Shown: positions 2,263 through 59,051 of the stretch, piece after piece
Layout: every line of letters starts with the position of its first letter
Numbering within the stretch: position 1 is the first letter of the stretch
Source: an uncultured Candidatus Saccharibacteria bacterium
GTDB lineage: Bacteria > Patescibacteriota > Saccharimonadia > Saccharimonadales > Saccharimonadaceae
Reading direction: 5' to 3'
Assembly (NCBI GenBank): GCA_964558365.1
Contig: CAZLCC010000010.1
Span: 5,361-69,360, forward strand
Length of the DNA: 64,000 nt
The notes under the pieces: generated by a model
The model's database searches: none
The model's input: only the letters and a program-made list of their open reading frames with translations
What the model was told of the DNA's origin: nothing
Position numbers and translations under genes: made by a program

Positions 2263-2673
2263 TTAGCGTTTGAAATTTACAACTCGGCGAACAGTACCAT
2301 CATACTTACTATTAACGATCACAAGTACTTTCACGGATTTTGGCTTTTTCCCCCCGAGCCGTTTGAGATATATTTTCTTACCTCTTATATCGGTCCCACC
2401 ATAACATGATCCTGGGTCAGCCTGGAGATCACCATACCACCCCCAGCAGAAGCTAGTATTTGGGTTTGCAATGTCTCTAGGGTATCTAACTTTTGCTATT
2501 AAACCCCAATTACCATTTTTGCCGTAGATTTTTCCTCTTTTGACAATCCCCACAGAAGCCGCTTCTGTGGTTGGCGCAATAATTGTTATTAAACTAAGAC
2601 ACATCATTAGTGCAGTAGCAAATAGAGCGATAACTTTGAAATTATGCTTGCTAAGGATAATTTGTGAAAACAT
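2263..2673 (-). CDS. small secreted hypothetical protein
   Basis: N-terminal signal peptide (hydrophobic core ending in TEA-AS). Gly/Trp/Tyr-rich mature part. No family recognised. Confidence 0.55.
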   Translation of the reverse strand: MFSQIILSKHNFKVIALFATALMMCLSLITIIAPTTEAASVGIVKRGKIYGKNGNWGLIAKVRYPRDIANPNTSFCWGWYGDLQADPGSCYGGTDIRGKKIYLKRLGGKKPKSVKVLVIVNSKYDGTVRRVVNFKR

Positions 2674-5810: not shown

Positions 5811-6316
5811 GTGAAGTAATTCCTATTGTAGATGATCAAGATAAATTGATTGCTTATAAAGATCGTAAAGCAGTTGACTATACTAAAGATATATTTCAGT
5901 CATCTGCTTTGTGGGTTGTTAACTCTAATGGTGATATCTTACTGGCGCAGAGAAAGTTAACCAAAAGCAAAGATCCTGGTAAGTGGGGTCCAGCAGTCGC
6001 AGGCACGGTTGAAAAAGGCGAGGATTACGAAACGAATATTTACAAGGAAGCGGAAGAAGAGATTGGTCTCACTGGTTACAAATTTGAAAAGCTAGCTAAA
6101 GAAAAGCTTTCTGCTCCATATCCCTATCCACAGTTTGTGCAATGGTTTCAGGTGACCGTGGATAAGCCGATTGATTACTTCACCGCTCAACTGGAAGAGG
6201 TAGAAAAGATTGAATGGGTAGGGCGTAATTGGTTAATGAAAGATGTCCAGGAAAATCCAGAGAAATACATAACTAGCATGGGTCGGGCTCTGACGTTTTT
6301 AAGGAGATCTACATGA
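5807..6316 (+). CDS. NUDIX hydrolase
   Basis: Nudix box GTVEKGEDYETNIYKEAEEEIGL (Gx5Ex7[RK]EAxEEIG). Its start overlaps the pheS stop (ATGA). Confidence 0.85.
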   Translation: MSEVIPIVDDQDKLIAYKDRKAVDYTKDIFQSSALWVVNSNGDILLAQRKLTKSKDPGKWGPAVAGTVEKGEDYETNIYKEAEEEIGLTGYKFEKLAKEKLSAPYPYPQFVQWFQVTVDKPIDYFTAQLEEVEKIEWVGRNWLMKDVQENPEKYITSMGRALTFLRRST

Positions 6317-58370: not shown

Positions 58371-58393
58371 GCGTGGATAGCAAAACAAATCAT

Positions 58394-58478
58394 GCGGATG
58401 TGGTGGAATTGGTAGACACGCTAGTCTTAGGAACTAGTGCCGTAAGGCGTGAAGGTTCAAGTCCTTTCATCCGCACCA
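58394..58478 (+). tRNA. tRNA-Leu (anticodon UAG), CCA encoded
   Basis: Hand-folded cloverleaf: acceptor GCGGATG/CATCCGC, anticodon stem CTAGT/ACTAG with loop CTTAGGA, long variable arm GCC-GTAA-GGC, T arm GAAGG-TTCAAGT-CCTTT, and a terminal ACCA. Confidence 0.9.
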
Positions 58479-58558
58479 TACCAGAATAAGATATAGAATT
58501 CAGGTGCAACACACTTGTTTTTTTATGTATGATTTTGCGGGATGTATATAGTAATTTG

Positions 58559-58828
58559 CTATATATTTGCAATAAATATCTGCACAGGAATATTTACAAA
58601 GAATGATACCCAAACCATATTATCCATATTCTCTACAATCTCACCAGTAAAGAGACCCCATAGACCCATTAGTACAGCAGTTATGGTCCACATGCTAAAA
58701 AACCAATATGCAAGCGTAGGGATTAGCCCACTGAAATGACTGAGCCAGAGTGCTAACAGTCCAGGAATAGCAGCAAACATCATACACCCTAGAAGTATTA
58801 AAATCTTTTTTATTATATCTCTTCCCAT
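58559..58828 (-). CDS. small hydrophobic membrane protein (about 89 aa, 3 TM), hypothetical
   Basis: Start set at the ATG at 58828 (MGRDII), preceded by AAAGG. The upstream part of the ORF covers the structured leader and terminator. Confidence 0.55.
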   Translation of the reverse strand: MGRDIIKKILILLGCMMFAAIPGLLALWLSHFSGLIPTLAYWFFSMWTITAVLMGLWGLFTGEIVENMDNMVWVSFFVNIPVQIFIANI

Positions 58829-58980
58829 TTTGCAACCTTTCTTTTTAAGAAAATTAAAAACGACACCGCAAGGTGTCTTACTTCCATTCACAAACCGGAA
58901 TAATCCGTCTTGTTTATGCGGTGCCGTTTTCAACGGATTACCGCAAAGGATTTGCGTCCGATTTATGATAAAAGTAAGAC
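58829..58980 (-). promoter_or_regulatory. riboswitch-like / attenuator leader with intrinsic terminator (class unknown)
   Basis: TGATATAAT extended -10 on the minus strand (58987-58995). Has a 9-bp closing helix, several mutually exclusive helices, and the terminator GACACC-UUGC-GGUGUC followed by U5 (58856-58877), all ahead of the SD. Confidence 0.45.
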
Positions 58981-59051
58981 TTTCTTATTATATCATTTTC
59001 TATCTGGTATAATATAGTTAAAGGAATGCCCTCATGATAGGGCTTATTTTT

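Follow-up and report, generated by a model that had tools for sequence, protein, structure and literature searches.

A new structured RNA family and candidate attenuator-type leader in mobile and variable DNA of Candidatus Saccharibacteria

In ON-type transcriptional riboswitches, such as the pbuE adenine, ZTP and fluoride riboswitches, a closing helix or a pseudoknot competes with an intrinsic terminator. The P4 CI and P1/P7 C4 antisense RNAs are derived from leaders of mobile elements, and their loops pair with sites in the same transcript, controlling termination or translation. Phage morons and the Pc/attI platforms of integrons place a fixed expression signal before interchangeable cargo. 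Here we describe an RNA that resembles each of these in part and, on the tests applied, qualifies as none of them. It is encoded in a 64,000-nt stretch of DNA from an uncultured Candidatus Saccharibacteria bacterium (contig CAZLCC010000010.1; hereafter the window, whose coordinates are used throughout), is read in its entirety on the minus strand, and lies directly upstream of ORF89, the gene of a small multi-pass membrane protein. A first-pass annotation of the window had noted here the layout of a riboswitch or attenuator. Of that proposal the closed domain, the promoter, the overlap with a terminator, the complementary loop and the lack of a known family all stand, but the fold is a different one, a three-way junction.

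Like the ON-type riboswitches, the RNA consists of a promoter-proximal domain whose helices covary and whose loops and junction hold invariant bases, with a gene directly behind it; the 3′ strand of its closing helix (P1) overlaps the 5′ arm of the terminator, and a long-range pairing with terminator sequence would block termination. It differs from the pbuE, ZTP and fluoride riboswitches in that it matches none of them in sequence or structure and precedes unrelated and mobile cargo. A further difference from ON-type riboswitches concerns the strand that competes: here the 3′ arm of the terminator, together with the U tract, would pair with a hairpin loop located 55 nt upstream.

Three metagenome contigs (L001, L002 and L003) encode a protein identical to ORF89. 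L001 matches the window along its whole length; L002 and L003 are 100% identical to it from the 3′ third of the RNA onward, and the first ~85 nt of their RNAs diverge from the window with compensatory changes included, so that the P3 helix AAUCCG/CGGAUU of the window reads UCGCCA/UGGCGA in L002. The DNA upstream of the RNA in L002 and L003 is unrelated to the window, and a TGnTAnnAT box is kept in each. Scans of public viral, genome and metagenome collections with short invariant motifs yielded 78 instances, 70 of them distinct. The viral scan returned one true homologue, the IMG/VR phage contig L005; two other gapped DNA patterns on viral contigs gave almost only chance matches, and nhmmer found L005 as its sole true hit. 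Among 185,579 species representatives in the genome collection there were 15 loci, one per genome and all in metagenome-assembled genomes of Candidatus Saccharibacteria or Saccharimonas, and the metagenome scan gave 62. A covariance model was built on a hand-checked seed of 23 sequences that was 95% consistent with the three-way-junction structure. It made exactly one strong match (72.7-150.8 bits) in each of 82 loci spanning 539 kb, and its remaining matches were weak antisense echoes of the same site; the window holds one copy. BLAST against GenBank phages and PLSDB plasmids gave no match to the RNA sequence. As far as sampled, the family is restricted to Candidatus Saccharibacteria, their phages and their integrative or mobile elements.

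Constrained single-sequence folds of 69 sequences all gave the same architecture. In the homologues, helix P1a (8-12 bp) is formed from the first transcribed bases and is followed by an internal loop with an invariant 3′ side (G-UGAAU-GG) and by helix P1b (6-11 bp); these lead into a three-way junction, from which the short hairpin P2 and a second hairpin, P3, project; the P3 loop of 22-28 nt bears AAACGGCACCGCAUAAAC. In an alignment of 72 sequences (71 distinct rows), standard pairs occupy 96.8% of helix cells; the figure falls to 77.0 ± 0.5% in shuffled controls and to 34-39% in controls with slid partners. Changes on both sides occur in 26 of 30 pairs, and none of 500 shuffles attained any of five covariation measures. 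The alignment was fitted to the covariance model, which favours the structure; even so, the controls with slid partners, together with how many different pair types occur, leave little doubt about the fold. G-U pairs in the helices (174 cells, 8.5%) far outnumber A-C and C-A combinations (14 cells, 0.7%), and the structure therefore belongs to an RNA transcribed from the minus strand. Judged by this covariation, which the first-pass annotation had named as a check to be made on homologous loci, the element is a genuine new structured RNA family of ~125 nt with a P1a/P1b/P2/P3 three-way junction.

In the window, an extended −10 box (TGATATAAT, 58987-58995) is followed after a 6-nt gap by GUCUUAC (from 58980) and then by ~105 nt of highly self-complementary sequence. 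The 157-nt stretch has a minimum free energy of −52.6 kcal/mol, compared with −31.5 ± 3.6 kcal/mol for shuffled sequences (z = −5.8; 0 of 200 shuffles as stable). The 5′ strand of P1a (GUCUUACUUUU, 58970-58980) pairs with GGAAGUAAGAC (58885-58875), with compensatory changes in 7 of 11 pairs and 98.8% of cells paired. The closing helix had been seen at first as 9 bp between GUCUUACUU (58980-58972) and AAGUAAGAC (58883-58875); it is real, and in fact extends over 11 bp (58980-58970 with 58885-58875) and is continued by P1b. Between the two helices lies a variable 5′ side of the internal loop (AUCA, 58966-58969). P1b is formed by UAAAUCGGA (58957-58965) and UCCGGUUUG (58899-58891), covaries in 8 of 8 modelled pairs and is paired in 97.4% of cells; its 3′ strand runs into the invariant internal-loop strand UGAAU (58890-58886), which with its flanking G and GG makes up the invariant GUGAAUGG. 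A leader peptide starting from the AUG within GUGAAUGG was considered and rejected: its frame is broken, or stopped by UAG, in the GGAUUAGAC and GGCUUAGAC variants. P2 (CGCAAA-UCC-UUUGCG, 58942-58956) covaries in 4 of 4 modelled pairs with 90.3% of cells paired, and its 3′ strand bears a conserved UG(C/U)G motif followed by G.

P3 joins GUAAUCCG (58934-58941) to CGGAUUAU (58907-58900), with covariation in 7 of 7 modelled pairs and 96.8% of cells paired. Its 26-nt loop (58908-58933) contains the near-invariant block AAACGGCACCGCAUAAAC (58929-58912), and within this block lies a segment, B (AAACGGCACCGCA, 58929-58917), that is complementary to 58870-58858. The pairing of UAAUCCGU (58940-58933) with ACGGAUUA (58908-58901), previously read as a potential pseudoknot or alternative helix, is present but is the covarying P3 helix itself. 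The nested hairpin GCGGU..CCGUU-GAA-AACGG..ACCGC of the same proposal can be drawn in the window, but only 74-86% of its cells pair across the alignment, no better than in shuffles. It breaks whenever the P3 5′ strand changes and is 10-12 kcal/mol worse than the junction fold in the window.

The view that the RNA belongs to no known class held up. Rfam 15 (4227 models) at the gathering threshold returned only the tRNA-Leu at 58394-58475 from the whole window; a scan of the region at E ≤ 10 gave only chance matches to small RNAs (sRNAs), microRNAs and small nucleolar RNAs, and 12 diverse homologues scanned at E ≤ 1 had no match on the RNA. A literature search found no Saccharibacteria RNA of this kind and no description of a regulatory RNA from Patescibacteria or Saccharibacteria. 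By reasoning together with the Rfam scans, 6S RNA, signal recognition particle RNA, phi29 pRNA, retron msr, guide and bridge RNAs and attC sites were also rejected, on the grounds of size, no partner protein, the pattern of invariant loops and variable helices, or no Rfam match.

The signals that bound the RNA are essentially invariant. The predicted transcription start lies 6-7 nt beyond the extended −10 box, at or next to G58980, and both box and spacing are conserved: across 70 distinct upstream regions, T at −15 occurs in 58, G at −14 in 59 and each base of TATAAT at −12 to −7 in 48-66, and of the 66 loci in which a TAnnnT box can be recognised, 49 have the 6-nt spacing to GUCU. Nearly every column is conserved at ≥97% in GUCU/AGAC (the first four pairs of P1a), GUGAAUGG, the P3-loop block and the complete terminator including its UUGC loop, while the helices surrounding these blocks vary freely. 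The terminator (GACACC-UUGC-GGUGUC-G-UUUUU, 58856-58877), noted in the first pass and reported by a separate terminator scan as well, comprises a 6-bp stem with four G-C pairs, a 4-nt loop and G-U5, and has the sequence attributes of an intrinsic terminator in all 72 homologues; its stem is 100% pairable and invariant in sequence. In each of the 71 distinct sequences, GAC belongs both to its 5′ arm, which we call segment C, and to P1a, so that the last three bases of P1a are also the start of the terminator.

A second partner for the terminator 3′ arm lies in the P3 loop. Segment D (UGCGGUGUCGUUU, 58870-58858) takes in three bases of the loop, all of the 3′ arm and the beginning of the U tract, and its alternative partner is segment B. 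The complementarity between the terminator 3′ arm and the upstream loop is longer than the 9 bp noted earlier: it extends over 17 nt at 88%, with 13-15 contiguous pairs when G-U is counted. Across the alignment the 13-bp B:D helix is pairable in 98.5% of cells. Four one-sided substitutions in its core (C4-A13) retain pairing via G-U or A-U, three cells are unpaired (two through G-to-A changes, one through another), and in 11 sequences a U replaces the first A of the A:U end. Moreover, RNAalifold selected B:D unprompted, as the sole helix returned from a sequence-only MAFFT alignment in which P1b, P2 and P3 are misaligned. For the window, the junction with full P1a was calculated at −32.6 kcal/mol, the junction with P1a shortened by 3 bp plus the terminator at −34.1 kcal/mol, the terminator hairpin alone at −8.0 kcal/mol and the B:D duplex at −23.0 kcal/mol. 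The terminated and closed-domain states are thus predicted to be nearly isoenergetic, and, the two being so nearly balanced, a B:D pseudoknot would tip the RNA toward read-through. An invariant loop would not be expected of a plain terminator and is hard to explain except by an alternative pairing or a bound factor; if the switch holds, UUGC would be invariant because its UGC nucleates pairing with the GCA of segment B.

The HMP-PP (thiS motif) riboswitch offers a precedent for a terminator conserved in this way. It is described as a 'terminator-embedded aptamer' (PMC6478431), and its terminator hairpin, like the one here, is conserved in sequence through a role in an alternative regulatory structure. 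The thiS motif is tiny and belongs to thiamin genes, whereas the terminator described here is preceded by a three-way junction of 105 nt and followed by heterogeneous genes.

Downstream of the terminator in the window, a 27-nt spacer (58829-58855) carries a Shine-Dalgarno (SD) sequence, GAAAGG (58841-58836), and no promoter-like site, and leads to the ATG of ORF89 at 58828 (58559-58828, 89 codons), as first annotated. The arrangement is general: a co-oriented open reading frame (ORF) with an SD begins 16-62 nt past the U tract in 77 of 78 loci. The exception is L200 (RNA at 6037-6159, minus strand), the sole locus without an ORF within 70 nt, where the first sizeable ORF (216 aa) lies 251 nt downstream. 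Because the spacers are too short for promoters of their own, the downstream genes would be transcribed by read-through from the RNA promoter, and co-oriented ORFs without room for a promoter are the main argument for reading the RNA as a cis-acting leader or attenuator.

The products behind the RNA are mutually unrelated across loci. Many are small proteins with two to four transmembrane segments (TM), including a recurrent 57-aa two-TM protein and a Zn-ribbon membrane protein; others are a DUF4352 protein, a Tsp45I restriction enzyme, EcoRI-like and other methylases, a type IV secretion system pilin, a type IV pilin and secreted low-complexity proteins. ORF89 itself matches no Pfam or PHROG family, and a PHROGs search of the cargo and element proteins was uninformative. 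A word-indexed protein search with ORF89 returned only itself, and an exhaustive search gave five distant relatives, so that its family counts six representatives among 1.84 billion proteins, three with the RNA upstream and three without it. ORF89 is 42% identical to the product of the first cargo gene behind the RNA in the L240 element. Judged from these occurrences, the RNA and the ORF89-family gene are independent modules, ORF89 being cargo and not a conserved partner. The earlier suggestion that the membrane protein is a transporter or channel for a ligand of the RNA therefore loses its support, as dozens of genes unrelated to one another are found behind the RNA and half of the ORF89 family does without it.

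Taken together, the conserved signals, the complementarity of B and D and the placement of the downstream genes make it on balance probable that the RNA is an attenuator-type leader that gates accessory genes in cis in the mobile and variable DNA of Saccharibacteria. In the mechanism we propose, transcription would start near GUCU from the conserved extended −10 promoter, and the long closing helix (P1a, internal loop and P1b) leads into the three-way junction with P2, P3 and the large invariant P3 loop. Segment D would then have two mutually exclusive partners: pairing with segment C would form the terminator and leave the gene off, and pairing with segment B in the P3 loop would form a 13-bp pseudoknot that blocks termination and permits read-through. 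Because the base of P1a would hold the first three bases of C, a closed, folded sensor domain would favour read-through, and an effector that stabilises or destabilises the folded domain, be it a small ligand, an ion, a protein or an RNA, would set the ratio of the two outcomes. The module would thus be a portable promoter and gated leader ahead of variable accessory genes.

Several points weigh against this proposal. Neither B:D nor C:D covaries, both partners being invariant in each case, and because invariant partners cannot covary the switch is deduced from conservation and complementarity. Part of the invariance of B and D was imposed by the search patterns, one of which fixed most of D and the other most of B; each segment did, however, stay invariant in the set whose pattern left it free. 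The downstream genes have no common function, unlike those of classical riboswitches. The pseudoknot would require P3 to fold back along P1, which by reasoning from helix lengths and linker sizes may be possible. Lastly, the terminated RNA of 125 nt could be functional in itself.

That last point leads to the alternative of a stand-alone trans-acting sRNA of mobile elements, whose transcription would normally end at the terminator. The stable ~125-nt product would use its P3 loop as a seed for targets elsewhere or to bind a protein, and its 3′ tail would tuck into that loop after release, a reading that we consider unlikely but still to be reckoned with. The strong conserved promoter and the terminator do bound a discrete RNA, its distribution is sporadic at one copy per genome (15 of 185,579 species representatives), its invariant loop on a covarying scaffold is reminiscent of an sRNA seed, and in the integrative element described below a regulator gene lies divergently adjacent; in some restriction-modification loci a D-like sequence over the SD of the downstream gene would even provide a possible loop target. 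Such an RNA would not need the fixed orientation and spacing to the next ORF, without room for another promoter, that 77 of 78 loci show. When 528 kb of flanking DNA was searched for targets on which the loop could act in trans, no recurrent or otherwise conserved complement of segment B turned up outside the RNA. The trans role is also compatible with a cis role, and both could hold. A classical metabolite or ion riboswitch, with the three-way junction as aptamer and downstream membrane proteins that move the ligand, is distinctly unlikely, and this transporter-linked version is less likely than the attenuator-type leader. It would account for the aptamer-like invariant junction and loop nucleotides amid covarying helices (26 of 30 pairs), for the ON-switch-like overlap of P1 and terminator, which has the form of an expression platform at the sequence level, and for the many small multi-pass membrane proteins downstream. 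It does not fit a cargo that also includes restriction enzymes, methylases, pilins, secreted proteins and a phage moron instead of a single pathway, an ORF89 family found both with and without the RNA, or the lack of an Rfam riboswitch match even at E ≤ 1 to 10. Moreover, a genome carries only one copy, and the association of the RNA with mobile elements and variable regions likewise speaks against a metabolite riboswitch of the classical kind.

Two further explanations locate the function elsewhere. Conservation could act on the DNA, the invariant 3′ 45 bp (GTGAATGG...GGTGTCGTTTTT) and its frequent inverted copy downstream serving as a recombination site or homology anchor to which the RNA fold is secondary. 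The breakpoints among the window, L002, L003 and L179 all fall in the invariant segment, conserved upstream and variable downstream modules meet at the terminator in integrase-bearing elements, and a complement of D lies 4-10 nt past the U tract in 40% of loci as against 6% of shuffles (at ≤ −10 kcal/mol). One-strand covariation with abundant G-U nevertheless requires selection on RNA, and the promoter, the U tract and the SD spacing are features of RNA and expression. The serine recombinase gene adjoins tRNA-Gly and not the RNA, no second RNA copy flanks the elements, and breakpoints in the longest identical stretch are an ordinary outcome of homologous recombination; we therefore regard this explanation as improbable. 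A leader for processive antitermination or stabilisation, like put, EAR or conAn2, would modify the polymerase or protect the 5′ end, the terminator being the first to be overridden. Its promoter-proximal place at the head of mobile-element and phage cargo and a 5′-terminal helix that begins at about +1 would suit such a leader, but with one to three genes the units of transcription are short, and it would be left unexplained why the terminator loop and its P3 complement are invariant. Nor did the RNA match any family in Rfam, which covers these leaders insofar as they are catalogued there. This possibility appears highly improbable.

The genomic setting also counts in favour of the attenuator-type leader. 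In 18 metagenome loci the conserved upstream side is a small integrative element, with the RNA at the head of its variable cargo side. The element runs from a tRNA-Gly through genes for a large serine recombinase, a Toprim/CHC2 primase, a 65-aa ORF, a DUF5659 protein and a divergent winged-helix regulator to the RNA and one or two small membrane-protein genes; an example is L240 1-5320 (= L257), and L248, L222, L197 and 14 other metagenome loci are similar. The regulator is of the OmpR type (Trans_reg_C; of the members tested, the best scored 33.5 bits). The gene for the serine recombinase lies directly beside tRNA-Gly, 3-4 kb from the RNA, the RNA diverges from the primase operon, and the transcription units behind it comprise one to three genes. 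A possible attR-like tRNA repeat (16 of 18 nt) was seen at L240 8527-8544. In five loci (L005, L185, L224, L233 and L245), the RNA and a gene for a 169-aa membrane-anchored protein lie between tape-measure and tail genes; in L005 the RNA (2431-2560, minus strand) lies 35 nt past the stop of a 980-aa tape-measure gene. From its position, the phage or prophage copy appears to be a moron-like insertion in the tail module.

This setting recalls the P4 CI and P1/P7 C4 RNAs, which likewise reside in an integrase-plus-primase element or a phage and combine a leader loop complementary to a downstream site with a termination decision. Unlike them, the RNA has a different fold, its pairing would oppose termination, and it points away from the replication genes rather than heading them; the RNA also gave no Rfam match at all, although the presence of a C4 or CI model in the library is unconfirmed. 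As with morons and integrons, a constant promoter-leader unit precedes variable cargo, one instance lies in a phage tail module, and junctions fall at the 3′ end of the unit. It departs from integrons in having no tyrosine IntI, no attC arrays and one cassette region per genome; each locus has a single copy of the RNA, the neighbouring recombinase, at a distance of 3-4 kb, is a large serine enzyme, and the constant unit is a structured RNA with its own terminator.

Comparison of loci shows where cargo has been exchanged. The downstream side is common to the window, L002 and L003, with upstream sides in the latter two unrelated to the window, and L179 and L003 have the upstream side and the 5′ part of the RNA in common and a different downstream gene; all breakpoints fall within the invariant 3′ ~45 nt. 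A 0.5-kb block (window 58390-58895, L003 ~585-1090), which runs from the 3′ third of the RNA over ORF89 as far as the 5′ end of the tRNA-Leu(tag), is 100% identical between the two, with unrelated flanks on both sides. The tRNA-Leu(tag) (58394-58475) is convergent with ORF89 in the window, and the layout of RNA, cargo and tRNA-Leu recurs in L003, L174 and L204. These junctions fit homologous cassette exchange anchored on conserved RNA genes; natural competence has been mentioned for Patescibacteria (PMC11665869). A site-specific mechanism is conceivable, but the place of the serine recombinase gene at the tRNA-Gly end, the single RNA copy and the RNA-type covariation speak against a mere att site. 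A more far-reaching reading, which we regard as unlikely, would make the RNA a mobile-element-borne sensor, riboswitch or factor-responsive, that reads a cellular or infection signal and induces defence, surface or exclusion cargo; its invariant 3′ end would be the cassette-swap junction of an RNA-gated, integron-like platform in an ultrasmall episymbiont.

The RNA is a well-supported new family with a testable switch, in which one invariant loop would compete for one invariant terminator. Mobile elements of Saccharibacteria are poorly characterised, and the RNA can serve to mark variable cargo loci as well as a small integrase-primase element of TM7 genomes. Inducible systems are lacking in these organisms according to a review (PMC11665869), and a compact natural module of promoter plus leader could serve as a tool for expression or induction in Saccharibacteria. 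If an effector exists, this would be the first sensory RNA defined in the lineage.

Some additional features were noted at individual loci. Degenerate complements of segment D (GGACACCG, CACCGCAA, GGCAUCGCA) occur 4-10 nt past the U tract in, for example, L191, L244, L181, L235 and L182; counted at ≤ −10 kcal/mol they are found in 40% of loci and 6% of shuffles, and the window has none. In several restriction-modification loci the downstream complement pairs with a GGUGUC-like sequence overlapping the SD and the start codon, an arrangement of sequences that suggests a second, translational layer of control there. Directly upstream of the RNA promoter in L003 (1-480) is a hairpin-rich, relatively G+C-rich non-coding stretch (..GAAACGGCGTGGCTGGTCGGTGGTTGTTGTC..); it is shared with L179, L187, L207 and L202, where it also lies upstream of the RNA, and may be another structured element. 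In L218 (83-209), P1b, P2 and P3 of the RNA all have substitutions that no partner change compensates, as has the invariant loop, which there contains CACCAC. In the 3′ part of the RNA and in the Tsp45I gene behind it, this locus agrees with L181 and L186. Either the copy is decaying or recombination has joined two halves that do not match. In the window, the upstream neighbour of the RNA is the divergent gene typA (start 59034), and two extended −10 boxes stand back to back between them, TGGTATAAT (59005-59014, plus strand) toward typA and TGATATAAT toward the RNA, forming a 10-nt inverted repeat with its copies 9 nt apart.

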